Program-made: the position numbers and the translations under genes
In this document: positions 10,508-38,969 of the stretch, one piece after another
Position numbering within the stretch: the stretch's first letter is position 1
Layout: each line of letters begins with the position of its first letter
Assembly: GCA_016219925.1 (NCBI GenBank)
Contig: JACRJU010000003.1
Span: forward strand, 22,505 to 86,504
Length of the DNA: 64,000 bases
Reading direction: 5' to 3'
DNA from: Candidatus Uhrbacteria bacterium
Lineage (GTDB): Bacteria; Patescibacteriota; Patescibacteriia; UBA9934; GWF2-40-263
The notes under the pieces: generated by a model
The model's input: only the letters and a program-made list of their open reading frames with translations
Databases searched by the model: none
What the model was told of the DNA's origin: nothing

Positions 10508-11124
10508 CGCCCCCTTTGTCTCATGATGATATTCAGGAGGCTGTTGCGGTTTTGAAAAACGGCGGAGTTGTGGTTTATCCGACCGAAACCGCTTATGGAC
10601 TCGCGGCAGACGCGACGAACGAACGGGCCGTAGAACGCGTAAGAGCCATCAAGGGAAGGGAAGCGTGGAAAACGCCACCGCTGATCGTTGCTGATAAGCA
10701 GATGGCCGAGCGTTATGTGATGCTTTCGTCTGTCCTGAACAAACTTGTACACGAATTGTGGCCGGGGCCGCTCACTATCGTGGCGCCAGTGAGTGATTTT
10801 GGACGACAAGAACTTGCGCAGGGGGTGATTCGTGATGGGACTGTGGCCCTGCGCGTAAGCTCGCACAAGATCGCAAGCGCGTTGAGCAGAGAACTTGGCA
10901 AACCGATCGTTGCTACTTCTGCCAACGTAGCCGGAGAGCCTACCTGTTTTGATATCGTTTGTGTACGCACACAGTTTGCCTCGCAACTTCTTCAACCGGA
11001 TTTTTTTCTTGATGAAGGTCCTTTGCCCGAGTGCAAGCCTTCGACGCTCATTGCAGAATGTGATGGGGAAGTGGTTATTCTTCGAGAAGGAGCTATCGAA
11101 ATAAAATATCCGTATGTTGCCTAG
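10504..11124 (+). CDS. tsaC: L-threonylcarbamoyladenylate synthase TsaC (YrdC/Sua5 family)
   Basis: 206 aa YrdC-domain protein: VVVYPTETAYGLAADATNERAVERVRAIKGR ... SANVAG. Confidence 0.85.
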   Translation: MTPPLSHDDIQEAVAVLKNGGVVVYPTETAYGLAADATNERAVERVRAIKGREAWKTPPLIVADKQMAERYVMLSSVLNKLVHELWPGPLTIVAPVSDFGRQELAQGVIRDGTVALRVSSHKIASALSRELGKPIVATSANVAGEPTCFDIVCVRTQFASQLLQPDFFLDEGPLPECKPSTLIAECDGEVVILREGAIEIKYPYVA

Positions 11125-11857
11125 AGCGAAAAAATCATACGGCCAAAATTTTTTGGTGGATGAAACCGTCGTTCAAAAAATTCTCGCGGCGGCTGAAATC
11201 AAACCGGGCGAAGCGGTTTTAGAAGTGGGACCGGGCACGGGGGTGCTCACGCGAGCACTTGTTGATGCGGGCGCACGCGTCGTTGCGGTTGAGGCGGATC
11301 GTGATTTGATTGCTGGTCTGAAGAAAGCATTTGGCGAAACCATCACGCTGATCGAGGGCGATGCCCTTGCCCTTCGCGCTCCTCTTCCATTCGAGAATCG
11401 AGCGTACAAGCTTGTTGCGAACATTCCCTACAACATCACCTCGCAACTTTTGGAACATTTTTTTACGACTTCTCCGCGGCCGTCACGGATGGTTCTAATG
11501 CTCCAAAAGGAAGTGGCTGATCGCCTCACAGCCGCGCCTGGAGATATGAGTCTGTTGAGCGTGGTGTGTCAGCTTTACGCGCGCGTTGAGCGCATGGCCG
11601 TTGTGAAGGCCGGGGCTTTTCGTCCCATGCCAAAGGTGGATTCTGCTATTGTCCGTTTTGATTTATATCCCAATGTCCATCCTGAAGCGGTGATTGCTCT
11701 TGCCAAGCGGGGCTTTGCCGCTCGACGCAAGCAACTCAAGTCCAATCTCGGAGCGGCTGTTGTCCCGACGCTTGAACGCATGGATTTGCCTAAAACCGCT
11801 CGAGCACAAGAACTTTCTGCCAAGCAGTGGATCGAGTTATCCCTAGGGCTTTCATAG
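11114..11857 (+). CDS. rsmA: 16S rRNA (adenine1518/1519-N6)-dimethyltransferase RsmA/KsgA
   Basis: KSYGQNFLVD start, VLEVGPGTGVLT SAM motif, NIPYNITS motif. Confidence 0.9.
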   Translation: MLPRAKKSYGQNFLVDETVVQKILAAAEIKPGEAVLEVGPGTGVLTRALVDAGARVVAVEADRDLIAGLKKAFGETITLIEGDALALRAPLPFENRAYKLVANIPYNITSQLLEHFFTTSPRPSRMVLMLQKEVADRLTAAPGDMSLLSVVCQLYARVERMAVVKAGAFRPMPKVDSAIVRFDLYPNVHPEAVIALAKRGFAARRKQLKSNLGAAVVPTLERMDLPKTARAQELSAKQWIELSLGLS

Positions 11858-11883
11858 AGCTTTTGTTATAATAGCAACAGACT

Positions 11884-12588
11884 ATGGCTATTAAGCGCGT
11901 GAGAACTTCCCAGCCTCGGGCACTCACGGCCGAGCAGAAGGTTGCTTTTGCGATCTTGTTGTTTTTGGGTTTGGGGGGTTTTGTTTTAGGCTTCCGTTCG
12001 TTTGGCAGTGCCATCAGACGGCCGTTTGATTTGCAGATTGCCAAGTATTTAAGCGGCGAAAAATTCATGACGAGCGAACAACGCCAGCAGAAGGATCTCG
12101 AAGCTTCCAAAACGCGCGACACCGATGGCGATGGCCTGAACGATTACGACGAATTATACGTTTATAAAACCAGTCCTTACCTCACCGATTCTGATTCCGA
12201 TGGATTTGACGACAAAACAGAAATTTTTTCCAACAACGATCCGAACTGTCCTCAAGAGAAGGACTGTTCCAAAGGGCCGACTCAAGAAGGAGTGGCTAAA
12301 GAGGAAATTCTTCCAGGTCTCAATAACGCTTTTGCGGATACCGCCGGCATTCTCGCTTCCGGGAAGGTTGATTTTAAGAATCCAGAGGACGTGAAGAATT
12401 TTTTCCGTCAAGCGACCATTGAAGAGATCCGCAAAGCTCTTATTCAAGCCGGCGTTCCCAAAGATCAGTTGGACCAGATTAGCGATGAGGATTTGACGAC
12501 ATTTTTTAACAGCACGCTTGATGACGCTTCCAATGCAGGAGCTTTTGATGCTCTCGTAAAGCCGCCGGACGAGTCGACTTCGCCTTAG
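11884..12588 (+). CDS. Membrane-anchored protein with thrombospondin-type-3-like Ca-binding Asp repeats
   Basis: 234 aa; N-terminal TM (FAILLFLGLGGFVLGF) followed by DTDGDGLNDYDE and TDSDSDGFDD (DxDxDGxxDxxE repeats). Its stop lies 1 nt before the ATG of the giant gene, indicating translational coupling. Confidence 0.55.
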   Translation: MAIKRVRTSQPRALTAEQKVAFAILLFLGLGGFVLGFRSFGSAIRRPFDLQIAKYLSGEKFMTSEQRQQKDLEASKTRDTDGDGLNDYDELYVYKTSPYLTDSDSDGFDDKTEIFSNNDPNCPQEKDCSKGPTQEGVAKEEILPGLNNAFADTAGILASGKVDFKNPEDVKNFFRQATIEEIRKALIQAGVPKDQLDQISDEDLTTFFNSTLDDASNAGAFDALVKPPDESTSP

Positions 12589-12589
12589 T

Positions 12590-15500
12590 ATGAATAGTGA
12601 TCGCAAACAATTTCGGCGTTGGGTGGGTGCGATAGGAGTGGTTCTTTTTGGATTCGTTCTCGTGATTCCGATTTTTTTGGCTCGTCCAGCTCTTGCGGTC
12701 GGAACAGAACAAACGGCGCTCGCGGGCGCACAGGCCGAGGTGACGTGTCATTCCGCTCCCTATGCTCCGCCTTGTATCGGCCAGCAGATTAAAGATGTCG
12801 CAACTATTCTGGGTGACCGCATTGTTCAGCCGACGTTTAAGATCGCCCTTGTCCAAGGACTTTTGAATATCTCTCAATTCGTCGTGAACCGTTTGGCTTA
12901 TGAAGCCGCACTTATCGTCGCTAACGGAGGACCGGGACAGGGCTCCTTGTTTTATAAAAAATCCGCTCTTCAAGGATTTAAAGAATTTGGACTTGAAGCG
13001 GCCGGCGAAGCTGTAGCCGACTTGAGTGACGCGCTCAATAGTAGTTTGGGGACGAAGTTTGATTTGTGTCTGCCGCCCGGTGCCGGATTCACGCTGGGTC
13101 TTCAGATCGGGATCGCGCAAAAATATCAACCACAGAAACCCCGCTGTGACATCAACGAAGTGGTGAATAATTGGTCAAGCTTTGTGTCGGATGCGTACAG
13201 CACCGTGACGGATCCTGATAAAGCCAGTCATGCTATTCTTTCAAAATTTGCCGAATCGCTTCAGCCGGGACGCAACGAGTTAAGCGCTTCGGTTAAGCTC
13301 AATATTGAATTGCAAAAAGAGGTTGCAGAGAAGAAACAGGCTGAGATCACTGAACGCACAACAGAAAAGCCCGCAGTGAAAGACGTCAAGGATCCCGTAA
13401 CCGGAAAAACGAAAACGCCGGCAAAAGTTGCCGAGAATGATTTTTTGGACAAGATCAAAAAAGCCGTGACAGGCGAGACCACCCAGCTTAAAGCGCAAGA
13501 CCTTGCGGGATTTGGGGATGCGATGAGTGGTCTAGCCCTCACAGCCGCTTCGACGTTTACCAATACCCTCCTGTCGCAACTGTTCAACAAAATTTACAAA
13601 GGATTGTTTGACGTGAAACCAGACAGCAAAACATCTTTCAATGTTGAAGCGGTAGCGGATCAAGGACAAAATCCAGAGCAATTTTCCAAACTCTTTGCGA
13701 CGACACCCATTGCCACAGGGGATTACAATGCCCTGACAGAATTTGTTGTGTGCCCTCCGCAAGGCGTTGCCAATCGCGGTCTGAATAACTGCGTGATGGA
13801 TTCGAATTTCCTTTCGGCGATCTCTCGGGGCAACTCGGGTGCGCCTCTTACCGTTCAGGAGGCGATTGATCAGGGGCTCATCAGCGGTAGTTGGCCGCTC
13901 ATCTCGCCGTCAGATTTATCCAAAAATCAAGATCCTTTGTGCTATACCTATGGATTCTGTTACGGCAACCTGGTGAAACTTCGCAAAGCGCGCGTTCTGC
14001 CGATCGGCTGGGAGCTTGCGGCTTTGAATAATAAAGTTTCCAAACCGAGCAGCTTGCAGGAGATCATCAACAACTTCAATTCCTGCAATAGCTTCGGAGC
14101 CATCGATGGCGAGCATCCGTTCTGTCACCTGGTCGACCCTAACTGGGTACTTAAATATCCTGATACCCAGTGCCGCGCGACGGTGAACGGCGAGATCAGG
14201 CTTACGGCGCTTAGTCCGGGGCGACAAAGCGTCTGTGCCGACGCGCCGAGCTGTCTGGGAGAAGACGGTTCGGGCAAGTGCGTGGAGGGCTATGGGTATT
14301 GTGTGCGCGAGAAAAACGTGTGGCGGTTTCGCGGCGATGAATGTCCGGCACAGGCCGCTGGGTGTCTTGCCCTGACGAATACCCAAACGAACGACCGCCA
14401 AGCTTACACGATCAACACGGTTGATTTTAGCGTTTGCGGACAGCAAAACGCCGGGTGTCAGTGGTACCGAACAAACAAAAATCTTTCTACAGCCGGGACG
14501 CCCACTCTTACAGATGATACTTATGAATGGTTAGTGGCGGGTGAAAATTATAACACGACAGGGCCGACAGACCGAGGGGACGATTGGAAATTTGATAAAA
14601 ACGGAACTTCTACTCCACGCGTTTCTTATGTTGTGAACACTCCCGTGCGTTACTCCTATGAAGATCGCCTGTATCTGACGCGTGCGGTTCAGAGTTGTTC
14701 GCAAAATGATGCAGGATGTTCCGAGTTGATCGCTGGAGCAGGAGGATCCATCTTGAATTTGATTCCAAATCCAAGTTTTGAGATTGACGAGAACACCGAT
14801 GGCATTCCGGATCATTGGCTTCCGCAGAATTTGGCGGCCAATAAGATTATGATTGATTCTTCAAAGCCGGCTGCTCGCGGGAAGAACGTTCTTAGGCTTA
14901 TCAACGTGCCCAATAACGCCGCTCTTGTTCAACGTTTTGATCTGCAACCGAATCAGTTTTATACCTTGAGTTATTTCTTTGCTTCAGTTGCGGCCATCAA
15001 TGCTCCAGGAACGGTTCGGATGCAGTTTTCGGGTCCAAACGGCACCCCCGTGAGTTATAGCGGACTGTCTATTTCAGGTTGTACGGTTTCAAATGTCTTT
15101 GCGGGAGAGATTGATTCATCCGTGAGCGCCACTTCGGATTGGCAGCGGACGAGCTGTACCTTCGGAGTTCCATCACCAGCCTCACAGCTCAAATTGATGA
15201 TTGAATCGCCCGGTGTACGCTACGACGGTTTTCAGCTCGAGCCGCGTGAAGTGGCCAGTGACTTTGTGGAGGGGATTCATATCGGAAACGCCCAGACGCA
15301 ATACACGAAAGTCGCGCCCGCCTATTTGAAGTGCACAGGTGCGACCACAGATTCAGCCGCCTGTAACACGTATGCACAGATGTGTCAGGCCCAGGATGTT
15401 GGCTGTAATCGCTACACGCCGGACAATGGAGATCCGTCCGTGCCCGCCATCGCAAACGATTTGGATGCGTGTCCAAGCGAATGCGTGGGATATGATACGT

Positions 15501-18500
15501 TCAAACAAGAAGCCACAACGTATGATGACGAAGCATTCCCCGTTTATTTCATTCCTGCAAAAGCCAAGGCATGTACCGCTGAACAGGTGGGCTGTGATAG
15601 CTTCACGCGTTTAAGTGCTGCACAAGAAGGCGGCGAGCGCGTAGAAACTTATACGAATTTGCGCGCATGCGTGACGCCGGCGATGGCCGATGGTTCGGCC
15701 AACAATAAGACAACCGCGACGTTCTTCACATGGGAAGGATCAGACAATGCGGGCTATCAGTTACGCTCGTGGACGCTTCTTAAATCCAACATGCCGGACA
15801 ATCAGTCCATGGCGCAGCAATTGGCGGATGTTTCACTGACAGAGACCAATATCGGCCAGGCTCCCTGTACGAAGTGGCGAGTCAATGGTCCAAGCGAATT
15901 GATTTGTGAAGATTCCGTCGGAGGACATCTGAACGAGGTGGCGCACAACACGGTCTGCGACGCGCACGAAGATATTTTCACCAATCCAAATTGCCGCGAA
16001 TTTTTCGATACACAAGGAAAAGTTCATTATCGACTTTTTTCTGACACCGTCACCGTGAATGAGGAATGTGCCCCCTATCGAAAAGATACCTCCACACTTT
16101 CCGATTGCAATAATTCCGGGGGTTTTTGGGATGTCCAGACGGGTTTCTGCCGCTACTTCGGACTCTCGAGTGAAAGCAAGAGTTGTCCGGCCGCGGTGTC
16201 TGGTTGCCGTTCTTATACGGGTGGAACAGGCAGAAATTCCGCGACTTTGCTTTCAGAAACATTTGAGAGCGGGTCGTTTGTGGGATTCAAGCCGTATAAC
16301 GTTCAAGGGAATGCCTCATTGCTTATTAGTAATGAGTCTATTGCAACCGACGGACATTCCTTGCGCGTTGCGGTGAATAACGGCACCGCGGGAGTTTCAA
16401 CCACCCAGTACTACTTAAACAACGCAAACGCAAATGTTTCCTACGATCCAACCAGCGACGCGACAAAAGCCGCGACGTGTACGGCGTTTAACAATGGAGC
16501 ATTCGCACACAAAATCTCGCCAGCGGGTTGTGAGATTGATGCCGGCAACAATGGAAGTGTCGAATGTGTGGTCGGGCCCGGGGAGCACAGTTGCGGTCCG
16601 CTCGTGAATAAACTCGTTTCCGGCAAAACGTTCCTGCTTGAGTTCTGGGCAAAGGGCGATGGGAATCTGCGCGTGCGATTTGTCGGAAACGGCGGAGCCG
16701 TCGGCGGCGTTTCGAATAATCTTTCCGATCCATTCCCGCTTACAGCCGATTGGCGCGTGTATAAGCTCGGGCCACTGGATTCAAGTTCCATGAGCGCGAT
16801 CAACAAAGATAGCGTTCTGGTGTTTGATGCCGGTCCCGGAAAAACTTTTTATCTCGATAATCTCGTGCTGAAACAAGTGGAAGAAAACGTAACTATCGTG
16901 AAGGATTCCTGGGTCATTCCATCTACGTGCGACAGCACTCCCGCAGGTATCAACTCGCCGCAATACTATTTGGGTTGCCGCGCGTACAGCGATCAGATGG
17001 GCGCGGCTCATTCGTTGTATCGCTTCTCGCGGCTGTGTTCGGACAAGGTCGTGGCCTGTCAGGCCTTCTTCCAAACTCAACAGTCCAAATCTCCTTACAG
17101 CCGCGCCTACAATGTGCGGTGCGCCAAAGGGACAAACGGCGATTTATCCAAGCCCACAGTAGTCAATCAGGCGACAGCGTGTACGGTTGATAGCGTCGAG
17201 TACTGCACGATCGCAGCCGGCCGTTCGTTCTGCACGTTTGATTACGATGGGTTGTTTGGCGAACTCCTGCCGCGTCAAGGCGATTTTGGAATCGTCTATG
17301 GTCCGGAAACCGTGTTGACGCCTTCGGACCGCATTGTGTATTTCGTAAACGACGGTTCGAAAAACTGCGACTCTGGCCAAGCCGGATGTCAGGAAATGGG
17401 TAAACCAAAATACGCGCAGGATCAAAAGAAAGTTGACGGGTTTGAGAGCGTTTATTTCATCAACAATCCCGAGCAGTACGGACAGACCCTTTGTGACAAC
17501 GATGCGCTATTCTGTCAGGAATACGGCTCAACAAAGGACGGCAATTTCTATTTCAAAGATCCGCTCAAAAAGACGTGCGATTATCGGACGAGTGTAGAAA
17601 TTAACGGAAAGAAATATAGCGGTTGGTTCCGGACAGGGACATCGGAGTCTTGTTATCCGGGGTATGTGGTCGGGGGAGATCAAGCCGGCATCTGGAAAAA
17701 TGGAGATAGCTCTTATGATGGTTGGGTTGGAAGTTGTGATCAAAGCCAGGACCGTTGTACGGAATTCATCGATATTGTGGATACGGAAGGCGGCTTGAAA
17801 AAAGACGGCACCTCTTATTACTTCATCAACAACGATAAGTTGACCGAGGCGGGAACCGCAAGTCCAACGGCGTGCAAAGGACAGATAAGTCAGAAGCAGG
17901 GATGCGCGCTATTCAATAACCGTAGCCGTTCTGAACTGAATTACAACGCGAGCGTTTCCTATGTCCTTTCCACACATGCCGATGTCTTGCTCAATAAGGC
18001 GCCCAACGCGCTTGTTGATCCGGTGAGCTGTGCGCAGTTAAACGGCGGAGTGTATACCATTTCTGATACGCAGAAGGCTCTGCTCGGGCTTGAGGATTTA
18101 AATCCTGGGCAAGACGGGACGCAAGTGCCGCTGTGCAACACGCGATGTCAATATGTCACGTCATCTGATGATTCGATTCTTTCAAACATGGGCCAGTTCT
18201 ACCAGTCTTTCTCAGACCATGTCAGCTATCTGGAGCGCGCGTGTCTCATGGATTCCGATTGCCCCGCGCTTCAAACGAAAAACGGGCAAGTGGTGAAAGG
18301 ATCCTGCACGAAAGACTATGTTGATGATAACTACAGGCTTTCCAATGATTCCAACACCGTGTTGAAGGTGAACCGCGACCGCAGTTGTAGCGCGTGGCTG
18401 GCGTGCGACAGTTCTCGCACCAGTTTCAACGCACAGAGTAATAAGTATGAACCGATTTGTGATTCGATTAGCTTGTGCGTGAAGGGCGGGAACGTCGGAC

Positions 18501-21500
18501 AGAGTTCGGCGTGTACGCAGTGGGATCCTCGCGCGCCGGAGATTTTGACGAACTACGGTTATTCCAAGCGCGACGTGAACTGGAACGGGTATGAATTATC
18601 TGGGTATGCCATTCCTAATCAACTTCCGGTTGAGTTGTACGATCAGTTTAACGTCAATCCAGCAAAAGCGTGTACAAAAAATGGCGCGTTCGTGAAAAAG
18701 GACGGTTCAGCTTTGCCGGCGAGTGAAAGTCCGGTGGCCTGTGGCGATAATACAGAATGTAAGGGGGGCGGAGTCTGTCAGATAGCTTCGCAAGATTTTC
18801 GTTTGGTTTACAACGCCGGTTCGTGTGATTCTTCTGCGGGCAACGGCGGGGCGTGTCGGGTTGGGCGCTGTTCGATCACCCAAAACGCGTGTTCAAAAAA
18901 TGCGGATTGTTCCGGGGCTGGAAATACGTGTTTGACGGGCGCCTGTCAGGCGGTTGCGACCAAGAATTGTCAGAACGCCGACTGTTCGTGCACATCCGCA
19001 GACGCCAATAACAACAAGAAGGCCAATGCTTGCGAGAATGCGAAGACCGGCGCGAATAAAGACGCCTCTGTTTGCGACCCTGTTGCTGGCGTTTGTGTGG
19101 ATCATCTGACGACGGGGGCGGGTGCCGTAACGTGCGGCCCGGAGAACGCCTGTGTGGACGGCGCCAGCTGCATTGATTCCGCGACGACCGCCCACGGAGC
19201 TTGTTTCAACAATCAGTGCCTGACCAACATTAAGGATACGGACAAGAACGGCTTTGCCGATCCGATTCAAATCTCTTCCGCGCTTGGCCAGTCGTGTCGA
19301 GGATATCCTGAGGCGGATTCGCCATTTCCGTCCAAAGTGGTTGATCAGTGGAGTACGGCCAAAGAGAAACCCGAAAAAGGACTCGATATCAACACGTCTC
19401 TTAATCAGCTCAAGTCATGGTCAACGCCCTATACGTTCAAAACGGGATACGAGGATTCCAGAACATGCGCGGTTGATGCACAGGGGCATATCACAAACTG
19501 CGATTGCAGTTACGATAAAATTTCGTACGGCAAAGGAGCGATTACGCGTTACGAAAATGTCGGGGCATCGCCTAATGCCACGCAAGGATTCTGTTTAGGC
19601 GGCCCGCATGAAGGTTTGCACTGTGCGACAGATGAGGATTGTTCCGAAGGGGATAAGGACAAGGGAACCTGTCTGCGTTTGCAAAAACAGGATACGATTT
19701 TGGGCTGGAGTGGGTTCTGCATTGAAAAAGACTCCTCCATTCAAATCAACGCCAGCACAGATCCGGAGGATCGCGCGTGTTTGACGTGGCTTCCTGTTGA
19801 TCAGCTTTCTGGAGCGACGGATTTGTACGCGAAGTATACGAGTGCGGGGTTTGCTGTCGATCAAACGTTGTATTGTGCGGATATTCAGCCTTCCTATGAC
19901 GTAAAGACGACTGCTGTCGGTTGCGGAGAAATTAAGGGACCAGGGTATTGCGGTTGGGATCATGATGATGGGGTTGGCGATGCCAAAGATAATATCGGTG
20001 ACGACGATCCCATTATATTCTGTCCAGACGGATTTTTCGGCGTCATGACGATGTGCGATGAGCTTTCAGAGTCTGGCCATACGATCGCCAATAGTTCAGA
20101 CGGCGATTGCGAAGAAGGAGATAACGATTATCCGTATTTCTGCGTCCCCTATCAATCGAAAAAAACTGAAAACAATCAAACAACGGATTGTATTCCTCCG
20201 ACAGATGCGAATTGGCAAACGAGGGATAATTCTGGACACCCGACCTATCTGTATGTTGACGGTGGCACGTTTGAAACTAAATATAATACATACAAAAATT
20301 GCGTCGTGAAGGGAATTTCTCAAGAGCACATCAGTAAATATTTGTTTAAAGAATCAAACCCATCTCAAGTATCTGAAAACGGTCCGGGGAGTATTTACTA
20401 TGGTTTGACGTATAACTTTGACCAACACGCTTCGTGCAAGTCTCTCGTAGAAACTTCTACGAGCAAGCTTCAACCCGCTGGCAGTAAGAATGTCTATAAT
20501 GTGGCGTGGACGGATCGTTTATGGAAGGCCGGATATACGATTCAGCCGGACAATTCTCCAGAGTTTAGCTATCGATACGCGACATCTCCATCGCTTTTTG
20601 GGCGCGCGGTTCCCCTTGCGACATTGACGGAGAAGCCTGACCCTTCCGCCCCTGTGCTCTCCATGTGTCGCAAAGGTCAGTCAGAAAAGTTCCAAATTCG
20701 CAATCCGCAAAATCCTGATGAGTTTATCTGCGCGCAGCAACAAGATGGCTATCAGCTTAGTGCCGGCGATGCGAGGGGGTTTTATCAGGTTGCGCTTAAT
20801 AGCACCGGTTTTGCGCCGCCAGATGAAAAGTTTTGCAAGGACGGTGGTTGTGCATGTCCGACTAAAAAAACCGTTGAATGCAACTGGCAGAAAAATCCGC
20901 AAGTTCAGAACGATCCTGGACGTCCAGTGACTTGCGGCGACCGAAGGTGTTCTAATAACAACAACGTGGCGTGTGACAGCGAAGACGATTGTCCGAACTG
21001 GGATCCAAAGAGTCCACAGGCGTGCGGAATTGGTTTTCCAGCATGTCCAGCAGGTCAGAACTGTCATTCCCAAATTTGGGGAAATTCAGGAACCTGTTCT
21101 CCTGATTGTAATCCGCAGGGTCAAAGCGTGTGTATAGGCGGACCAAAAAATGAGGAGGCATGTCAGGATGATGGCTTCTGCCGCAACAATCAATGCTTAC
21201 AGGGTGAGTGCGTATCAACGCAACTTCTTCCCGGAGGGACTCCTTTGTCGAATCTTGAACCTCCAGAAAAAGCCAAAACCCGCTTGCAGCAACTTTTCGC
21301 GCTTTCGCTTAATCTTGTGACATTTAATGATGGACTGGTAAACAATCCCGGCGAGGCTGGAAATTCAACGGGGACGTTTAGTGATCCTAGTTCCATTGAT
21401 AAAGGCGCTGCGTGGTATTGGGATGCGCGTTCGCAAGGGGACATCACGGAAAAACCAACACCACCAAAAGTTATTTCGCTCGGCGCATGCGTAGGTTCGA

Positions 21501-22219
21501 AGTGTCGGGAAGGGAAAGAAGGAACGTTTACGGTCAATGACCAGGATTCGGGAAACATTGAGGGAAAGGTTTCGAAACGCGCGACTGTGAGTTTCTTTAC
21601 CTACGCCAACTCCAACCAGATGCCTATCCGCCAGATCGTGGTTGACTGGGGAGACGGGAAGAATTTCGGGGCAATGCCATGGCCGACGGACGCACAGACG
21701 GGTTCGATAGCTAAAGACAACTTTTATAAGAACCATCGAGGGGTGAATGCGTCGGGCCAGGAAATTTGTAGTTCGGCTCCCGATGAGTTTGGCAAAACGT
21801 TTGATGCGTGCAGTTCGAGCTTTGTCGTGTTCAACCATGATTACGTGTGCACGCATGCGGATATCGCCAATAAGCTGGATGGACGCGCGTGCAAGTACGC
21901 CTCCGACGGGCGTCTGCTTAATTCGCCGTGCACGGACGGGAAGCGATGTATTTATCAGCCGCGCGTGAACGTGCAGGATAACTGGGGTTGGTGCACGGGA
22001 TTCTGCAATGCCGGCGCTGATGGGACGAATGGGTGTTTTGGGGGGGATGAACAACCAGGCCAAAATGTTTATAACAACGAGTGCAATATTGATAAGTGTC
22101 CCAGCAAAGCGGAGGATGGAGCACAGGGCACAGCACCATGTCCTGATAAAACGGCAGGGACCGTGAATAATCCTTGGGTAAATTTTGACGGAACAGTTAT
22201 CATTACTCCGGAAGAGTAG
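12590..22219 (+). CDS. Giant (3209 aa) membrane-anchored, cysteine-rich extracellular protein with CBM4/9-like jelly-roll modules
   Basis: Uninterrupted 9.6-kb ORF with an N-terminal signal anchor (VVLFGFVLVIPIFLA) and hundreds of Cys in CxnC pairs. Two segments (about nt 14764-15060, NPSFEIDENTDGIPDHW...YTLSYFF; and about nt 16230-16890, FESGSFVGFKPYN...FLLEFWAKGDG...YLDNLVLKQ) carry the hallmark pattern of CBM4_9/galactose-binding-like carbohydrate-binding modules. The C-terminal region is Cys/Gly/Asn-rich. Confidence 0.75.
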   Translation: MNSDRKQFRRWVGAIGVVLFGFVLVIPIFLARPALAVGTEQTALAGAQAEVTCHSAPYAPPCIGQQIKDVATILGDRIVQPTFKIALVQGLLNISQFVVNRLAYEAALIVANGGPGQGSLFYKKSALQGFKEFGLEAAGEAVADLSDALNSSLGTKFDLCLPPGAGFTLGLQIGIAQKYQPQKPRCDINEVVNNWSSFVSDAYSTVTDPDKASHAILSKFAESLQPGRNELSASVKLNIELQKEVAEKKQAEITERTTEKPAVKDVKDPVTGKTKTPAKVAENDFLDKIKKAVTGETTQLKAQDLAGFGDAMSGLALTAASTFTNTLLSQLFNKIYKGLFDVKPDSKTSFNVEAVADQGQNPEQFSKLFATTPIATGDYNALTEFVVCPPQGVANRGLNNCVMDSNFLSAISRGNSGAPLTVQEAIDQGLISGSWPLISPSDLSKNQDPLCYTYGFCYGNLVKLRKARVLPIGWELAALNNKVSKPSSLQEIINNFNSCNSFGAIDGEHPFCHLVDPNWVLKYPDTQCRATVNGEIRLTALSPGRQSVCADAPSCLGEDGSGKCVEGYGYCVREKNVWRFRGDECPAQAAGCLALTNTQTNDRQAYTINTVDFSVCGQQNAGCQWYRTNKNLSTAGTPTLTDDTYEWLVAGENYNTTGPTDRGDDWKFDKNGTSTPRVSYVVNTPVRYSYEDRLYLTRAVQSCSQNDAGCSELIAGAGGSILNLIPNPSFEIDENTDGIPDHWLPQNLAANKIMIDSSKPAARGKNVLRLINVPNNAALVQRFDLQPNQFYTLSYFFASVAAINAPGTVRMQFSGPNGTPVSYSGLSISGCTVSNVFAGEIDSSVSATSDWQRTSCTFGVPSPASQLKLMIESPGVRYDGFQLEPREVASDFVEGIHIGNAQTQYTKVAPAYLKCTGATTDSAACNTYAQMCQAQDVGCNRYTPDNGDPSVPAIANDLDACPSECVGYDTFKQEATTYDDEAFPVYFIPAKAKACTAEQVGCDSFTRLSAAQEGGERVETYTNLRACVTPAMADGSANNKTTATFFTWEGSDNAGYQLRSWTLLKSNMPDNQSMAQQLADVSLTETNIGQAPCTKWRVNGPSELICEDSVGGHLNEVAHNTVCDAHEDIFTNPNCREFFDTQGKVHYRLFSDTVTVNEECAPYRKDTSTLSDCNNSGGFWDVQTGFCRYFGLSSESKSCPAAVSGCRSYTGGTGRNSATLLSETFESGSFVGFKPYNVQGNASLLISNESIATDGHSLRVAVNNGTAGVSTTQYYLNNANANVSYDPTSDATKAATCTAFNNGAFAHKISPAGCEIDAGNNGSVECVVGPGEHSCGPLVNKLVSGKTFLLEFWAKGDGNLRVRFVGNGGAVGGVSNNLSDPFPLTADWRVYKLGPLDSSSMSAINKDSVLVFDAGPGKTFYLDNLVLKQVEENVTIVKDSWVIPSTCDSTPAGINSPQYYLGCRAYSDQMGAAHSLYRFSRLCSDKVVACQAFFQTQQSKSPYSRAYNVRCAKGTNGDLSKPTVVNQATACTVDSVEYCTIAAGRSFCTFDYDGLFGELLPRQGDFGIVYGPETVLTPSDRIVYFVNDGSKNCDSGQAGCQEMGKPKYAQDQKKVDGFESVYFINNPEQYGQTLCDNDALFCQEYGSTKDGNFYFKDPLKKTCDYRTSVEINGKKYSGWFRTGTSESCYPGYVVGGDQAGIWKNGDSSYDGWVGSCDQSQDRCTEFIDIVDTEGGLKKDGTSYYFINNDKLTEAGTASPTACKGQISQKQGCALFNNRSRSELNYNASVSYVLSTHADVLLNKAPNALVDPVSCAQLNGGVYTISDTQKALLGLEDLNPGQDGTQVPLCNTRCQYVTSSDDSILSNMGQFYQSFSDHVSYLERACLMDSDCPALQTKNGQVVKGSCTKDYVDDNYRLSNDSNTVLKVNRDRSCSAWLACDSSRTSFNAQSNKYEPICDSISLCVKGGNVGQSSACTQWDPRAPEILTNYGYSKRDVNWNGYELSGYAIPNQLPVELYDQFNVNPAKACTKNGAFVKKDGSALPASESPVACGDNTECKGGGVCQIASQDFRLVYNAGSCDSSAGNGGACRVGRCSITQNACSKNADCSGAGNTCLTGACQAVATKNCQNADCSCTSADANNNKKANACENAKTGANKDASVCDPVAGVCVDHLTTGAGAVTCGPENACVDGASCIDSATTAHGACFNNQCLTNIKDTDKNGFADPIQISSALGQSCRGYPEADSPFPSKVVDQWSTAKEKPEKGLDINTSLNQLKSWSTPYTFKTGYEDSRTCAVDAQGHITNCDCSYDKISYGKGAITRYENVGASPNATQGFCLGGPHEGLHCATDEDCSEGDKDKGTCLRLQKQDTILGWSGFCIEKDSSIQINASTDPEDRACLTWLPVDQLSGATDLYAKYTSAGFAVDQTLYCADIQPSYDVKTTAVGCGEIKGPGYCGWDHDDGVGDAKDNIGDDDPIIFCPDGFFGVMTMCDELSESGHTIANSSDGDCEEGDNDYPYFCVPYQSKKTENNQTTDCIPPTDANWQTRDNSGHPTYLYVDGGTFETKYNTYKNCVVKGISQEHISKYLFKESNPSQVSENGPGSIYYGLTYNFDQHASCKSLVETSTSKLQPAGSKNVYNVAWTDRLWKAGYTIQPDNSPEFSYRYATSPSLFGRAVPLATLTEKPDPSAPVLSMCRKGQSEKFQIRNPQNPDEFICAQQQDGYQLSAGDARGFYQVALNSTGFAPPDEKFCKDGGCACPTKKTVECNWQKNPQVQNDPGRPVTCGDRRCSNNNNVACDSEDDCPNWDPKSPQACGIGFPACPAGQNCHSQIWGNSGTCSPDCNPQGQSVCIGGPKNEEACQDDGFCRNNQCLQGECVSTQLLPGGTPLSNLEPPEKAKTRLQQLFALSLNLVTFNDGLVNNPGEAGNSTGTFSDPSSIDKGAAWYWDARSQGDITEKPTPPKVISLGACVGSKCREGKEGTFTVNDQDSGNIEGKVSKRATVSFFTYANSNQMPIRQIVVDWGDGKNFGAMPWPTDAQTGSIAKDNFYKNHRGVNASGQEICSSAPDEFGKTFDACSSSFVVFNHDYVCTHADIANKLDGRACKYASDGRLLNSPCTDGKRCIYQPRVNVQDNWGWCTGFCNAGADGTNGCFGGDEQPGQNVYNNECNIDKCPSKAEDGAQGTAPCPDKTAGTVNNPWVNFDGTVIITPEE

Positions 22220-22245
22220 GAAAAGTTTGTCGGCACTTCGGCCCT

Positions 22246-22322: not shown

Positions 22323-22356
22323 AGCGGTGTGTCATCCTGAAGGAGTCTTCGACTCC

Positions 22357-28000: not shown

Positions 28001-28379
28001 GATAGATAAATTTTGTTTATGATTTATAACAGTTTCCAATTTTTACGCTCATTTTAGCTAAAAAATGATTGACAGATAAGCTGTTTTTTGATGTGATGAT
28101 AACAGATCGCAACACACCGAACAGTTCTGTCTTGATCGAAGACGAAGTCGCAGATTATGTGACACACCCTTCAGAAACGGCAACACGGGTCTGTCGGTGC
28201 GATCCAAAACGATGCGCTGAATTGGGAGGCAGAGCATCGGACTCACCCACACGCATGGATTGTTCATCTGTGTGACATGAGTCAACACACTCGCGTCGGT
28301 GCGCGCAGGTCCTCGCGCATCCGGCGAGGAGGTTGACTCAATCTCCTCGTGGCGTTCTTTCAAAACAAGGAGAGCGATC

Positions 28380-30362
28380 ATGAGGTCCACCGGATTTGCG
28401 TTCGTGTACTTCATCCTGATGGTCATCGCTGGTTCGTGCGTGGCCCTGGCCACGTCGTGCGGCACGATCGAAGCGCAGATGGACAGCTCGGGCGTCTATG
28501 GCGACGTCGGCGGCGGTGGCGGACAGGTGGTCATGCATCTGCCGTTCTCCCGCGAGCTCTCGACCGAGTGCGTGCAGGGCGTGAACGGGGCTCACAGCCA
28601 CCGTAGCCGCTCCACGCACTTCGATCTGGACCTCGATACCTCAAACGTGGCCGACGAGCCGGTGTTCGCTCCGGTGTCCGGCATCGCGCGCGTGCACACC
28701 GAAGACCCGTCGCGCAACTTCGGCAACCACGTGAACATCGACAACGGCGACGGAACTTACGTCGTGTGCGCGCATCTGCGCATCGCGGTCGTCAAAGATG
28801 ACCAGGAAGTCGCGCAGGGCGAGCTGATCGGCTACGAAGGATGCACGAGTAACTGTACCGGCGATCATGTGCACATCGGTCTGCATCGTGGCGATGCGGG
28901 CAAGATGGCGCAGATGGGCGAGTCCATCCCGTCGGCGTTCTTCGTCGCCCGCGCCAGCAGCCCGCGCGGGTTTGCCGTTATCGAAGGCAAAGACTTCATG
29001 TGCGGCATCCGCGCCATGGGCGACGATCGCGACGGTCTGTTCTACAGCTCCGCGCTCGACACGCCTCTGTTCCATCCCAACGGCTCGCTCGTGAAGCTTG
29101 CGCTCGACCCGCGGGTGTATCGCATCGACAACGGTCTGGTGCGCCACATCGCAAACGAAGACGTGTTCCGCAGTTACAGCTACACCTTCGAAGATGTCGC
29201 TCTGATCTCCGATGAGGAGATGACTTGTTACGGGGAGGGGAGCGAGATCAGCGAGCACGGCATGGTCAACGCGGTCAATGGTCCGGATGGTGCGCTTTGG
29301 CTCGTAGTCGGCATGTGGGACAGCCCGGCTCGTTACCGCATCCGTATCCGTCAGCAGGGTTGGGAGCAGGTCGTGCGCTCTTGGGGACTCGAGTATGACG
29401 GCATGGATGTCCCCCTTTTCATCGATGTGACTCACGGGTACTGGGTGCATTGGAACGAACGCCCGGGGTATGCGAAGTTTCGCGATGGCACGCTCGTGAA
29501 GGAACGCCGACGCTCGGACATCTACGTCATCTCCGACGGGGTGGCCGTGCCGATCCGCGACTGGGAGACCTATCTCTTGCTCGGCTTTGCCGATCGGACG
29601 TTCCTGACGGTCGGGCCCGGAGTGGTCGCGCAGGTGATGGGATCGGTGGGAAGCTGTAACGGTTCGAGCTGGTGCTTGGATCGGGAGGCGGCGTTCATCT
29701 GCGCAGGAGGATTCGATGGTGAGCCTCCGGCTGACAACACCAAGCCGGGTCCCTCTTTGGATGAAGGCACCGCGCCGCAGGCGCATAGCCCACCGGACAA
29801 CTCCGTACCTCAAAACTCCAACATCCCCGCTCAAGACGACAACCGAGGCGGGACTCAAAATGATCCGTCCGCCGACCCGTCCGAGTCGACACCTCTCGCG
29901 CAGTCCTGCGAAGGCCGTGTGGGGTGCCTCATCGATGCTCGCGGTATCGGCATGGCGCAAACCCTTGCGCTTTCGGATCAGCTCTGGCTGGATCCTGCGA
30001 GCACGAGGTGGGACGCGTACCTGTACGGCTACGGGGACTGCTTCGACAGCTACCCCGACGGCCATCAAGTGATCCACTCCATCGGCGGCTTCTACCAGAT
30101 CGACTTCTCGAGCATCAATCGTTCGTGCACGATGCTCATGACCCTCATCTCCTCGATCGGAACGGACGGCTTGCCGCCCGATGAGCAGATGTCGAACTGG
30201 AATTGGTGGCAGAGCGAGACCTTGTGTCGTCCGGGCACCCCGATCTGCAACCTCATGAACAACGGAACTTCTTGGGAAGCGTGGCTGTTGTCGCTCGCGT
30301 GGGATCCGCAAACGGGTCTGACCGCAACCGGCAACGCGCTGACCAGCAACGCGCAACTCTAG
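28380..30362 (+). CDS. M23 family (LytM-like) metallopeptidase, secreted/lipoprotein-like, with about 450-aa C-terminal extension
   Basis: Start chosen at the ATG with an AGGAG RBS (the ORF track begins 81 nt earlier). Signal sequence FILMVIAGSCVALATSCG; HxxxD (HFDLD) and HxH (GDHVHIGLH) M23 motifs; about 64% GC against a background of about 50%, and the composition switches abruptly at the stop codon. Confidence 0.7.
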   Translation: MRSTGFAFVYFILMVIAGSCVALATSCGTIEAQMDSSGVYGDVGGGGGQVVMHLPFSRELSTECVQGVNGAHSHRSRSTHFDLDLDTSNVADEPVFAPVSGIARVHTEDPSRNFGNHVNIDNGDGTYVVCAHLRIAVVKDDQEVAQGELIGYEGCTSNCTGDHVHIGLHRGDAGKMAQMGESIPSAFFVARASSPRGFAVIEGKDFMCGIRAMGDDRDGLFYSSALDTPLFHPNGSLVKLALDPRVYRIDNGLVRHIANEDVFRSYSYTFEDVALISDEEMTCYGEGSEISEHGMVNAVNGPDGALWLVVGMWDSPARYRIRIRQQGWEQVVRSWGLEYDGMDVPLFIDVTHGYWVHWNERPGYAKFRDGTLVKERRRSDIYVISDGVAVPIRDWETYLLLGFADRTFLTVGPGVVAQVMGSVGSCNGSSWCLDREAAFICAGGFDGEPPADNTKPGPSLDEGTAPQAHSPPDNSVPQNSNIPAQDDNRGGTQNDPSADPSESTPLAQSCEGRVGCLIDARGIGMAQTLALSDQLWLDPASTRWDAYLYGYGDCFDSYPDGHQVIHSIGGFYQIDFSSINRSCTMLMTLISSIGTDGLPPDEQMSNWNWWQSETLCRPGTPICNLMNNGTSWEAWLLSLAWDPQTGLTATGNALTSNAQL

Positions 30363-30410
30363 CGCATCTCCTGTGCACAACATCTGTGCGCAGGTTTTTC
30401 GTTTTTCTGT

Positions 30411-30416
30411 TATAAT
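30411..30416 (+). promoter_or_regulatory. Candidate -10 box (TATAAT) 10 nt upstream of the VirB6-like ATG (leaderless or very short leader)
   Basis: TATAAT at 30411-30416 preceded by direct repeats TCTGTGCACAA/TCTGTGCGCAG; no convincing -35. Confidence 0.25.
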
Positions 30417-30426
30417 TTGTGCAGTT

Positions 30427-33369: not shown

Positions 33370-34999
33370 CGTCCCAACTCAACGGCAACTGTCAAAGGAA
33401 GTCCGAGATTATTTTCTCTCGGATGACGTTTTTGCGCAGTATGAAAGAATTGCTGGCGATTATGGATTAAATCAGGAGGAAGCTGTTTCGAGTCTTTCCG
33501 CGCTTGTGTATCAGTTTGTGGCTGGAGTTTTTCCGCTCGACACCCTGCTTAGGAAGATCCAAATGGAGTTTTTGCTCACCACGCCGCGCGCGCAGGAATT
33601 GTTGTCGGCGGTTTTTTTGTACGTCGTCTCTGCCGTCGCGGATCAAGTCAGCGGGCTTTCGCAGGCCCTTGTAGATTGGAAATCCTCTGCGCCACAGGAG
33701 GAAAAAATGACGCCACGCGCTTTCATTCGTCTTTATCTGTCTTCCATTCCAGATCGACTGGATCCGGTTGAGGAACATCGTTTGGAAAATATCTTGTCTC
33801 TTTATCTCCAAGGGGTTCGTTCACGCGAAGAGACGGTCGCTTTTCTTCAAAGACCTCATAAACTCGGCGGCATGGAGATGGAGCAAGATGATGCTATTGA
33901 AATGTTGGCGGAGTTTGAGTTGCGAAAACAGGCCGTCGTTTTTTCGGATGAGATCGAACCCCCTACACCCTCTACCGTCTCCACACCCCCTGCTGTCTCT
34001 ATACCTTCTGCTCCTGCGCTCGATGTTTTTTCCTCAGACGATGCCGAAGAAGTCGCTCATCATGCTCAAAAAGACGCATCCCCATCTTCAAACACCATCT
34101 CGTTGAGCGCCGACGAGCTTTTAGCACGTATCTGTCAAAATGATGCATTTGTTTTTTCTGATCCGCAAAAGCAAAAACGCTGTCAGGAAATTGTGTCCGC
34201 ACGCGTGCGGGATGTGCGTGACGCGTTTCAAACGCGCGCTCTTCTTGAGCAATCAATAGATCAAGGGGGTCTTGGGATTCACGGTCTTCAGCTGGCTCAG
34301 ATGGTTGAGCAAATTGAGCAGGTGGTGGATGCCCAACAACGCGAGTCACAAAAAAATCTTGAGCAAGAGCGCACGGCGTCTTCAGAGCAAAAAAAACAAA
34401 AACAACAAATACAAGATCAGCTTCGCATCAAAGAAGAGCAAGTGCTCGCAAAGCGATATGTTCAGACGACGGGACAACTGCCGACAGAGCCCGTAGCTCC
34501 AGCCGCGCCTCCCTTGGCTCGTGCATCCGCTGCGTTTTCGCCCCAAGCGCAAATCGAAAAACAAGAAGCTCGTGTGGACGCGCAGAAAGTACGCGCTATT
34601 GTGCAGAAGGCCGCTTCAGCTCAACCTCTGCCAACACCTCCCCCCGCGCCGCGCGGTCGCGTTCAGGATATTCAGATGAGTCATCGACTTTCTGGACCTT
34701 TGGAAGAACTTGGAAGCATGGATCTCACCGCTTTTCGCCGTTTATCGCATGAGCCCGCGCAAGCCGCTTCGCGGTTAATGGATTTGGTGGGGTTGCTTGA
34801 AAATCAAAGTTACGAAAAGCGTGTTGAAGGGATTAAAATGTTAAAGCGGTCGCCTTTAATGCACGTGTATGCCTCCGTGACGCAGAAGGCTCTTCTGGGT
34901 GGAAAATCTGTTGATGAGGTATTGTCACAAGATCTCCAAGGGTTGAAGCTTGCCGAGTATCAAGCGCTTATGGAGGTAAACGCATCTTTGCGATTCTGA
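33362..34999 (+). CDS. Hypothetical protein (Pro-rich segment plus Q/K-rich coiled coil), T4SS-like cluster
   Basis: 545 aa; 8-nt overlap with the upstream gene; no recognisable catalytic motif. Confidence 0.4.
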   Translation: MPDVPTQRQLSKEVRDYFLSDDVFAQYERIAGDYGLNQEEAVSSLSALVYQFVAGVFPLDTLLRKIQMEFLLTTPRAQELLSAVFLYVVSAVADQVSGLSQALVDWKSSAPQEEKMTPRAFIRLYLSSIPDRLDPVEEHRLENILSLYLQGVRSREETVAFLQRPHKLGGMEMEQDDAIEMLAEFELRKQAVVFSDEIEPPTPSTVSTPPAVSIPSAPALDVFSSDDAEEVAHHAQKDASPSSNTISLSADELLARICQNDAFVFSDPQKQKRCQEIVSARVRDVRDAFQTRALLEQSIDQGGLGIHGLQLAQMVEQIEQVVDAQQRESQKNLEQERTASSEQKKQKQQIQDQLRIKEEQVLAKRYVQTTGQLPTEPVAPAAPPLARASAAFSPQAQIEKQEARVDAQKVRAIVQKAASAQPLPTPPPAPRGRVQDIQMSHRLSGPLEELGSMDLTAFRRLSHEPAQAASRLMDLVGLLENQSYEKRVEGIKMLKRSPLMHVYASVTQKALLGGKSVDEVLSQDLQGLKLAEYQALMEVNASLRF

Positions 35000-35042
35000 T
35001 ACAATGGAGAGAAGAAAGTAGCAAAGGAGTAAAATAACAGAT

Positions 35043-35474
35043 ATGCCCGATCAGTTCGTTGTTCCACAGTTTATTGATGCCGAAGATAAAATTTTCGGGC
35101 CGATCACGGCTCGGCAGTTTATTATTCTCATGGTGACCGGGCTGATTGACTTTGCGCTTTTCAAACTATTTTCATTTGTGACGTTTCTGCTTATTGGCAT
35201 TCCGGTCATCATCATCGGCGGGACGTTTGCCTTCGGAAAAGTGAATGGACAGGTTTTTCATTACTTCATGTTGAATCTCATCCAAACCGCAAAGAAACCG
35301 AAACTCCGTGTCTGGGAGAAAGTTTACAATGATGCAATATTGCGGTCGTATATTAAAGAAGAGATTCCTCCTCCGCCACCCCCTCCGCCGCATAAAGCGC
35401 CGATCTCTACATCGCGCCTTAATGAGTTGACGTTGGTGGTGAATACGGGCGGAGTGTATCAACCGGAGGAATGA
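35043..35474 (+). CDS. PrgI/VirB3-like small membrane protein
   Basis: 143 aa; N-terminal VPQFIDAEDKIFGPITARQ (PrgI-family signature KIxGPxTxRQ) followed by two TM helices; poly-Pro tract PPPPPPPPH; overlaps the next gene by 4 nt. Confidence 0.55.
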   Translation: MPDQFVVPQFIDAEDKIFGPITARQFIILMVTGLIDFALFKLFSFVTFLLIGIPVIIIGGTFAFGKVNGQVFHYFMLNLIQTAKKPKLRVWEKVYNDAILRSYIKEEIPPPPPPPPHKAPISTSRLNELTLVVNTGGVYQPEE

Positions 35475-36169: not shown

Positions 36170-36171
36170 GT

Positions 36172-38852: not shown

Positions 38853-38854
38853 CA

Positions 38855-38948
38855 AGACCTCTGCAAAACTCGCGATCTTTGCTCTCACGGGCACCCGTTG
38901 ACCCCACTTTCCCTTTTGAGCAAATTTCATCGAGTTGTGCAGAGGTCT
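38855..38948. repeat. MITE-like repeat element copy 2 (terminal inverted repeats AGACCTCTGCAAAACTCG / CGAGTTGTGCAGAGGTCT)
   Basis: Shares the terminal inverted repeats and the internal CGCGATCTTTGCTCTCACGGGCACCC with the copy at 6705-6830; located between the VirB8-like gene and comF. Confidence 0.6.
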
Positions 38949-38969
38949 TTCACGAAAGCATGGCCATGG

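Follow-up and report, generated by a model that had tools for sequence, protein, structure and literature searches.

Uhrbacteria are uncultivated bacteria. From the Peribacteria, a lineage within the Candidate Phyla Radiation (CPR), large cysteine-rich extracellular proteins have been described for which a role in attachment was proposed (Anantharaman et al. 2016, PMC4736985), and in a cultivated Saccharibacterium a type IV secretion system (T4SS) and predicted adhesins are essential (PMC11665869). The T4SSs of Patescibacteria have MPF-FATA ancestry and no relaxase, and the survey that described them reported that "no adhesins, such as PrgB, were detected"; in its ABY1-type neighbourhood, ksgA, comF, recG and radA lie near virB4 (Quinonero-Coronel et al. 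2025, PMC12102498). Here we analysed a stretch of 64,000 nucleotides of Candidatus Uhrbacteria contig JACRJU010000003.1 (positions 22,505 to 86,504; hereafter the window, with coordinates counted from its first letter), in which a small gene and a giant gene of 9.6 kb stand in tandem on the same strand as a set of T4SS-like genes. We propose that the products of the pair form a surface structure. A literature search found no published work on this family of giant Uhrbacteria proteins.

The giant gene is intact and widely conserved

The giant gene is a single uninterrupted open reading frame (ORF), and translation revealed no internal stops in either it or the small ORF upstream, in agreement with an initial annotation that had been made from the letters of the sequence. 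Its product is 100% identical to the NCBI entry hypothetical protein HZA85_00510 of Candidatus Uhrbacteria bacterium, a protein from a metagenome-assembled genome whose lineage is Patescibacteria group, Parcubacteria group, Candidatus Uhriibacteriota, such that the CPR origin proposed by that annotation is right. A word-indexed search returned at least 120 relatives at 29-59% identity, mostly full-length (~2,850-3,460 aa) with a few partial, nearly all of them unnamed or labelled "hypothetical" and from Uhrbacteria or Patescibacteria. In a scan with one genome per GTDB species the family was present in at least 573 species genomes, and the 80 loci listed stem from 80 different assemblies, one from each. 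An exhaustive HMMER search with residues 385-640 as query matched 1,115 representatives of 50%-identity clusters, 552 of them at E<=1e-30, and in the best 150 matches this domain held a constant place (~residues 360-650) in proteins of ~2,700-3,700 aa; fragments presumably account for the shorter entries. Alignment of 116 sequences revealed 117 of the 150 cysteines to be conserved at a level of at least 80%, many of them in every sequence.

An assembly or annotation artefact, whether a collapsed repeat or a chimeric ORF, is effectively refuted for practical purposes, because over 100 independent assemblies, some of them with contigs of 0.3-1.0 Mb, conserve co-linear full-length orthologues; a repeat search of the window also found no tandem or dispersed DNA repeats inside the gene. 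The gene occupies about 1% of a roughly 1-Mb genome and is conserved over hundreds of species, all the while unannotated.

A small membrane protein is coupled to the giant gene

At the junction of the two genes (TAG-T-ATG) the giant ATG stands 1 nt past the small-gene stop, a spacing already seen in the initial annotation. All 81 related loci for which upstream sequence exists retained the order rsmA, small gene, giant gene. From small-gene stop to giant ATG the median distance was ~4 nt, and ~60 of the 81 had a gap of 1-10 nt. Because it is conserved over these 81 loci, the coupling argues for co-translation and a fixed stoichiometry. The genes 5' of the pair form a co-directional overlapping run of RF1 (8551-9561), an NAD-epimerase (9545-10507), Sua5/YrdC (10504-11124) and RsmA. 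A promoter scan found no sigma-70 matches around the pair, and the "terminators" that were predicted fall within coding sequence. A perfect TATAAT lies 12 nt 5' of the small-gene ATG, in the 11858-11883 interval, with no obvious Shine-Dalgarno sequence and, in the scan, no -35 partner; it could be a short-leader or leaderless internal start.

The small protein has a single hydrophobic segment (residues 17-42), with a predicted signal-anchor transmembrane (TM) helix at ~20-37 (nt 11941-11994). Since only 12 of 74 orthologues carry a signal-peptidase-like site after this helix, its sequence identifies it as a signal-anchor membrane protein, and by the positive-inside rule its N-terminus would lie inside and its ectodomain outside. 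The ectodomain carries two TSP3-like motifs of the Ca-binding type, DxDxDGxxDxxE, at residues 79-90 and 102-113 (79-113 being nt 12118-12222), within a core that reads DTDxDGLxDYDELYVYKTSPYLxDSDSDGxDDxTE..NDPNCPxGKxC across 77 sequences and also includes the conserved C-x5-C pair C122/C128. The protein further has a variable linker and a helical C-terminal domain of weak conservation. The initial description of a Ca-binding TSP3-repeat membrane protein therefore stands for the membrane anchor and for the two conserved motifs, and not for membership of the family, as Pfam TSP3_bac (PF18884) reached 17.8 bits (E=0.003) under a cut-off of 25, with homologues listed as "faint", and NCBIfam gave weak motif-level matches to MtsD and CglD. 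If the signal peptide of the giant protein is cleaved, the small protein would be the obvious membrane tether, and from the sequences of the two a two-component surface complex, as first suggested, may reasonably be inferred.

The giant protein is a cysteine-rich chain of conserved and variable regions

Along the giant protein only one hydrophobic segment, at residues 8-40, was found, and no other TM segment. The initial annotation took this N-terminus for a membrane anchor, but it looks like a cleavable Sec signal peptide, because an [AVSG]-x-A site follows the h-region in 101 of the 105 homologues having one (typically AxA and then Q, with the median predicted site at residue 34). At the other end, the C-terminus (...NPWVNFDGTVIITPEE) has neither an LPXTG motif nor a TM segment, and no SLH, sortase/LPXTG or other wall-binding signature was found in the protein, with SLH and wall-anchoring Pfam families absent from 15 homologues too.

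The cysteines number 150 rather than the "hundreds" first stated (4.67% of residues, equivalent to 75 possible disulfides). C-x6-C pairs were observed 18 times against 6.9+/-2.4 expected, a count that 1 of 2000 shuffles attains; C-x5-C occurs 15 times, and CC and CxxC not at all. Given this excess of C-x6-C and the zero counts of CC and CxxC, the pattern agrees better with structural disulfides than with redox or metal sites. A common context, "aromatic strand, C-x4-[AV]-G-C, x-x-[YFL]", surrounds eleven of the C-x6-C pairs (C-x9-C in one case) from residue 585 to 1772, and where such hairpins were modelled with AlphaFold2 (AF2) they sit between two short strands.

Mean identity to the query differed strongly between regions, from 62% over residues 385-530 (116 homologues), through 43-50% in the Cys-rich linkers, 40% in the C-terminal domain and 35% in the second of two jelly-roll modules described below, to 11% (at 45% occupancy) over residues 2701-2945, which hold a lineage-specific insert with 17 cysteines at 2749-2874. 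A search for the target signature of a diversity-generating retroelement found no template/variable repeat touching the giant gene and no reverse transcriptase among the window ORFs scanned.

Pfam and NCBIfam returned nothing significant for the whole giant protein (DUF6078 at E=0.11; GTA_spike_fiber at E=1e-4 over 760-892, below cut-off), the EGF, laminin-G, PKD and Myxococcus cysteine-rich repeat models of these libraries did not match at E<=1, and no catalytic family was detected in the query or in 15 homologues. Domain 385-530 has no detectable relative in sequence or structure (Foldseek against the PDB gave nothing below E=4), and we regard this domain and the recurrent disulfide-hairpin unit, both without known relatives, as novel features. 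A lysozyme or VirB1-like identity that was considered for this helical domain is unsupported. More broadly, no recognisable relative emerged for residues 37-724. For the C-terminal domain a 53-member alignment gave no consistent Pfam family and no PDB relative, and a PKD-like fold, guessed from its VDWGDG motif, is unsupported by that alignment.

Two modules adopt a predicted carbohydrate-binding jelly-roll fold

Two AF2 models were evaluated. The first (residues 380-1460, 24 alignment rows; mean pLDDT 67.8, pTM 0.32) was confident at 400-524, which is helical, at 720-897, at 989-1209, which is hairpin-rich, and at 1219-1429. Block pLDDT was 74-89 in module 1, 70-93 in module 2 and mostly 60-91 over the series of short hairpins at 989-1209, and the low pTM agrees with a multi-domain protein whose domains have no fixed contacts with one another. 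The second model (residues 36-722, 35 alignment rows; mean pLDDT 48.7) was confident only at 400-530 (pLDDT 85-95).

Comparison of the first model with the PDB by Foldseek gave 147 matches at E<=1e-3, in which carbohydrate-binding modules (CBMs) were dominant. The CBM22-1/CBM22-2 tandem 4xup (E=8e-8) aligned over both modules, and TM-scores were 0.70-0.73 for CBM16 (2zew/2zex/2zey), 0.63 for CBM4 (1gui) and 0.75 for 4xuo; other matches were to CBM4-2, a hyaluronan-binding module and phage tailspike jelly-roll domains. Cry toxins and binary-toxin components (CDTb) were listed as well, with long alignments at TM-scores of ~0.1 that are due to the jelly-roll domains of those toxins. The initial claim of two CBM4/9-like jelly rolls is thereby borne out at the level of predicted structure, with AF2 and Foldseek agreeing and similarity to carbohydrate-binding folds found for both modules, and a CBM4/16/22-type fold can be considered confirmed by the model.

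Sequence comparisons detected this relationship in the family rather than in the window's own member. Pfam CBM_4_9 (PF02018) did not match the giant protein itself at E<=1 and matched 14 of 15 homologues (best E 3.6e-10; in homologue P0006 at 732-823 with 26.8 bits against a cut-off of 25.9), such that the family is detectable as a whole and the window member alone is not. Among the domains first expected here, then, CBM_4_9 was recovered in homologues, and CBM_4_9 in the giant protein itself, laminin-G, EGF-like and TSP3 were not at curated thresholds. Searches of PDB sequences with phmmer and the family profile gave only marginal CBM matches (E=0.04-0.9, the profile reaching 1gui at E=0.04 and 2zew weakly). 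Module 1 is poorly conserved in sequence, with 28% identity at 93% occupancy between flanks at 43-62%, which, together with the hypervariable residues 2701-2945, suggests a conserved scaffold with variable binding surfaces. The P0115/P0120 clade, the most divergent one, carries a further CBM-like insert, its third, at ~640-800, which takes the place of part of 531-724.

The pair lies in a T4SS-like gene neighbourhood

The strongest contextual lead in the window, missed by the initial annotation, is a T4SS-like cluster (28.3-38.9 kb) together with a DsbA-like gene (Table 1). This gene neighbourhood matches the ABY1-type T4SS neighbourhood of PMC12102498, with RecG, RadA, two T4SS_pilin-hydrolase fusions and the DsbA-like gene further along, beyond the cluster. 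The DsbA-like enzyme is a possible catalyst of extracytoplasmic disulfide formation, going by its sequence.

Of the related loci, 30 extend at least 9 kb downstream, and in 26 of these an M23 peptidase and/or VirB6-like gene follows the giant gene within 10 kb and on its strand. In several divergent lineages the M23 gene starts 1.6-3.5 kb past the giant gene, and in the most divergent clade (L004 8001-16868, L006 8001-17000) the VirB6-like gene starts 4-8 nt past its end and is followed by genes for a 583/602-aa protein, PrgI, a TraC-like protein and VirB4, in one co-directional block with the giant gene. The protein directly after the giant gene in L004 shares 34% identity over the TM region with the window's 998-aa VirB6-like protein. 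In the window itself ~6 kb of other genes separates the giant gene from the T4SS-like genes. Taken together, the linkage of the giant gene to T4SS genes, a matter of gene order, is suggestive.

Several observations concern the surroundings of this cluster. Two neighbouring genes on the minus strand join T4SS_pilin (PF18895) to a hydrolase, Peptidase_C39_2 (46913-48202) in one and Amidase_2 (48210-49733) in the other, and RadA (45637-46926) and the DsbA-like gene (49737-50393) adjoin them. GC content is 0.55-0.64 over the kinase, SerRS and M23 genes (24000-30000) against ~0.50 elsewhere; these genes do not lie between giant and T4SS genes in the more divergent lineages. A 1085-aa antisense ORF at 24739-27996 is probably a by-product.

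Table 1. Coordinates of the gene pair, of the regions of the giant protein and of the T4SS-like neighbourhood in the window.
Feature	Position (nt)	Strand	Residues	Remarks
rsmA/ksgA (16S rRNA dimethyladenosine transferase)	11114..11857	+		Pfam RrnaAD E=1.4e-50
Small partner gene	11884..12588	+		234 aa
Giant gene	12590..22219	+		3209 aa, ATG start, 150 Cys, uninterrupted ORF
Predicted signal peptide, Sec-type	12590..12697	+	1-36	K/R n-region, ~21-residue h-region, A-L-A (34-36) then V
Cys-poor region, predicted helical	12698..13741	+	37-384	
Most conserved domain	13742..14179	+	385-530	Mostly helical; all 7 Cys kept; pLDDT 80-95 in two independent models
First run of predicted disulfide-stapled hairpins	14180..14761	+	531-724	C-x6-C at 564, 585, 616, 703
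CBM-like jelly-roll module 1	14762..15280	+	725-897	NPSFE...W, NPSFE at 727; AF2 and Foldseek
Cys-rich beta-hairpin linker, conserved	15281..16243	+	898-1218	All 18 Cys kept
CBM-like jelly-roll module 2	16244..16909	+	1219-1440	FESGSF...FWAKG...YLDN; AF2 and Foldseek; 4-Cys insert
Further conserved Cys-stapled repeats	16910..19939	+	1441-2450	C-x6-C at 1483, 1593, 1635, 1716; Cys-knot-rich stretch 2028-2240; conserved region E
Variable to hypervariable region	19940..21424	+	2451-2945	Occupancy down to 0.26, identity 0.06-0.11
Conserved C-terminal domain	21425..22216	+	2946-3209	VDWGDG, DNWGWCTG, NPWVNYDG motifs
Ser/Thr kinase	24367-26580	+		Between giant gene and T4SS-like genes
SerRS	26656-27933	+		Between giant gene and T4SS-like genes
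T4SS-like co-directional neighbourhood as a whole	28299..39647	+		
M23 peptidase	28299-30362	+		
VirB6-like polytopic protein	30373-33369	+		998 aa; VirB6-like by topology
545-aa protein	33362-34999	+		
PrgI/VirB3-like	35043-35474	+		PF12666, E=2.6e-9
TrsD/TraC-like	35471-36169	+		
VirB4-type ATPase	36172-38271	+		P-loop_TraG, E=1.9e-28
194-aa TM protein	38268-38852	+		
ComF-like	38898-39647	+		
DsbA-like thioredoxin-fold oxidoreductase	49737..50393	-		Pfam Thioredoxin_4 E=1.5e-23, DSBA E=7.6e-18

Proposed role of the pair and alternatives

On balance, we think it somewhat probable that the pair encodes a two-part Uhrbacteria surface structure, namely a fibre or adhesin, exported and stapled by disulfides, for which the small protein serves as tether and which may provide cell contact for the T4SS-like machine. 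The giant protein would be exported by Sec, its signal peptide probably being removed, and would fold oxidatively outside the cell, perhaps with the help of the nearby DsbA-like enzyme. It would form a long multi-domain scaffold out of about twelve hairpins of the "strand, C-x6-C loop, strand" kind together with Cys-knot stretches, with two CBM4/16/22-type jelly rolls inserted and a hypervariable region placed before the conserved C-terminal domain, and the many short-range disulfide staples would lend rigidity to the fibre. The small protein, translated just upstream on the same message, would stay in the membrane through its signal-anchor helix, display the two TSP3-like Ca motifs and most likely tether or nucleate the giant protein at the surface. 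Through its variable jelly-roll and C-terminal surfaces the scaffold would then engage a ligand carried by another surface, for which a glycan of a partner or host cell is the most plausible candidate. Because the pair lies in a conserved T4SS-like gene neighbourhood, cell-to-cell contact for that machine would be the most likely biological context. The host-attachment and surface-remodelling roles named in the initial annotation are candidate roles.

A number of observations weigh against this proposal. Cleavage of the giant protein's signal peptide was called by a simple rule rather than a trained predictor, and the models, which reach residues 36-1460 of 3209, have low confidence at 37-384 and 527-719, which leaves one third of the protein with a confident model. 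The CBM ligand-binding residues are not conserved in the modules, and a CBM fold alone is no proof of carbohydrate binding. As for the T4SS, a GIY-YIG cassette, the kinase and SerRS genes separate it from the giant gene here, unrelated genes do so in many loci, and in L086 an opposite-strand ORF stands between the giant and M23 genes (the window's own opposite-strand ORF, 23020-23634, has no detectable homology to it). The whole neighbourhood is moreover syntenic in the clade, unrelated RF1, Sua5, RsmA and SerRS genes included, and proximity to the T4SS could therefore be inherited gene order. A constitutive envelope component would account just as well for co-transcription with housekeeping genes and for the gene's universal presence (a single locus in each of the 80 assemblies listed).

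Such a component, a housekeeping envelope scaffold or S-layer-like coat, is the alternative we take most seriously, although we consider it unlikely. The giant protein would here coat or brace the cell's own surface, its CBM-like modules binding self glycans and the small Ca-motif protein anchoring it, and would have no particular part in recognising partners or in the T4SS. Its spread over at least 573 species genomes (80 loci from 80 assemblies retrieved), the overlapping co-directional run with RF1, Sua5 and RsmA, the strong conservation of the scaffold and the envelope-glycan genes close by (an epimerase, a Wzy_C ligase, and GT2 in L001) are what such a coat would lead one to see, but the protein lacks SLH, sortase/LPXTG and other wall-binding signatures, S-layer proteins tend to be much smaller and are not as a rule rich in cysteine, the variable first CBM-like module and hypervariable C-terminal region suggest diversifying ligand recognition, and in one clade the giant gene abuts T4SS genes. 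That same abutment (in L004/L006 the VirB6-like, 583/602-aa, PrgI, TraC-like and VirB4 genes follow after 4-8 nt) is an argument that the giant protein might be a structural part of the T4SS-like machine itself, an extracellular stalk or tip needed for assembly or substrate passage, along with the M23 and VirB6-like genes within 10 kb in 26 of 30 loci and the fact that monoderm T4SSs lack outer-membrane core components and have surface proteins instead (PMC12102498). We hold this to be less likely still, as unrelated genes intervene in most lineages, with an opposite-strand ORF in L086, no similarity to known T4SS components was found in Pfam, NCBIfam or the PDB, and the T4SS clusters of other Patescibacteria classes have been described without such a gene (PMC12102498).

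Quite improbable, in our view, is a secreted glycan-degrading or toxin-like effector in which CBM-like modules would guide a catalytic or pore-forming domain, as yet unrecognised, towards a substrate or a prey cell. CBMs do usually accompany glycoside hydrolases, the long, low-TM-score Foldseek matches include Cry toxins and binary-toxin components, and the highly conserved domain 385-530 has no known function. Against this, searches detected no catalytic family in either the query or 15 homologues, the Cry and CDTb matches (TM-score ~0.1) are explained by jelly-roll domains, and effectors are not typically strictly conserved, single-copy and co-transcribed with housekeeping genes.

Returning to the tethered fibre that we favour, it can be put in a bolder and more speculative form, which we offer as a possibility that we ourselves doubt: the pair might be the missing extracellular contact module of the Uhrbacteria T4SS-like machine, a Ca-dependent, disulfide-stapled fibre tethered to the membrane and a non-homologous functional counterpart of PrgB-type adhesins, with variable jelly-roll and C-terminal surfaces that read host glycans and so set the docking partner. 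If so, the pair would determine which partner the episymbiont docks to and exchanges material with. A surface pair beside a T4SS-like machine is a concrete candidate for host recognition where the survey in PMC12102498 found no adhesin, and it also offers a handle for labelling or enriching Uhrbacteria cells through antibodies, glycan probes or cryo-electron tomography landmarks. Should the giant protein be a generic envelope protein only, it would still mark out a new and large family of bacterial surface proteins rich in disulfides.

Other elements in the window

Directly 3' of the giant-gene stop (22220-22874) lies a GIY-YIG ORF (22400-22690) flanked by 87-nt direct repeats that are 91% identical (22237-22323 and 22788-22874) and made of GTCATCCTGAAGGAG / CTCAGGATGACAG palindromic units, with a related arm at 45594-45638. 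As GIY-YIG matches occur at differing intergenic positions of the same neighbourhood in related loci, the element looks like a small mobile homing-endonuclease cassette. Elsewhere (43202-43361), the 3' part of tRNA-Arg(GCG) (43220-43256) recurs as an exact 37-nt copy at 43325-43361, which could be an old integration scar, and an HNH endonuclease gene (41975-42463) lies near it. Two short segments 3' of groEL (6711-6830) recur with 87-97% identity at 38862-38948, just 5' of and into the ComF-like start, which may reflect duplication of a regulatory or 5' region. Palindromic units at a spacing of ~96-98 nt make up an intergenic array (61587-61945; families D4, D5 and I3) that had no Rfam match at gathering thresholds.

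Comparison with known systems

The modules of the giant protein share with CBM4, CBM9, CBM16 and CBM22 the beta-jelly-roll fold (TM-score 0.6-0.75 to 2zew, 1gui and 4xuo) and an N-x-x-F-E start motif. They differ from those families in that they are not joined to a glycoside hydrolase, fall below Pfam detection in the query, do not conserve the ligand-binding residues and, in module 2, carry a 4-Cys insert. Their arrangement, two jelly rolls with a Cys-rich spacer, is also aligned by Foldseek to the jelly-roll, EGF, jelly-roll repeats of reelin (2e26 and 5b4x, E ~4e-7), but at a TM-score of only 0.10-0.15 and with a spacer of 320 residues of hairpins in place of a single EGF, such that the likeness is an analogy of layout only. 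The small protein in turn shares the Asp-rich DxDxDGxxDxxE motif of the Ca-binding type, in two conserved copies, with the TSP3_bac proteins CglD and MtsD of Myxococcus, whereas it is a 234-aa signal-anchor protein with two motifs, far below family cut-offs, and has no counterpart to the rest of CglD and MtsD.

PrgB, the aggregation substance of the MPF-FATA system of pCF10, resembles the giant protein in being a large surface protein whose gene lies co-directionally 5' of VirB6, VirB3 (PrgI) and VirB4, and PrgB-type adhesins and the giant protein are both candidates for cell-to-cell contact. Unlike PrgB, the giant protein has no LPXTG anchor and, in Pfam, NCBIfam or the PDB, no sequence or domain similarity to it or to other known T4SS adhesins, its context is chromosomal and housekeeping rather than plasmid-borne, its T4SS is without a relaxase, and it mostly lies apart from the T4SS genes. 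By the tests run on its sequence, the giant protein is outside the PrgB-type, S-layer, EGF/PKD and Myxococcus Cys-repeat families, with its modules in the CBM4/16/22 fold class.

Closest in general character are the Peribacteria proteins, which are likewise large, carry a signal peptide, are Cys-rich (~7% against 4.7% here), are predicted to be extracellular and are without functional annotation. They come from another lineage and presumably belong to another family; they form a multi-gene, strain-variable cluster, as against the one locus per assembly (80 listed) and fixed 3,000-residue architecture of the giant protein, which is in addition accompanied by a conserved small partner gene and situated in a T4SS neighbourhood. 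The giant protein is thus set apart from the known giant CPR surface proteins by this fixed architecture, by its obligatory TSP3-motif partner, by a novel domain and hairpin repeat, and by the T4SS-like neighbourhood in which it is found.

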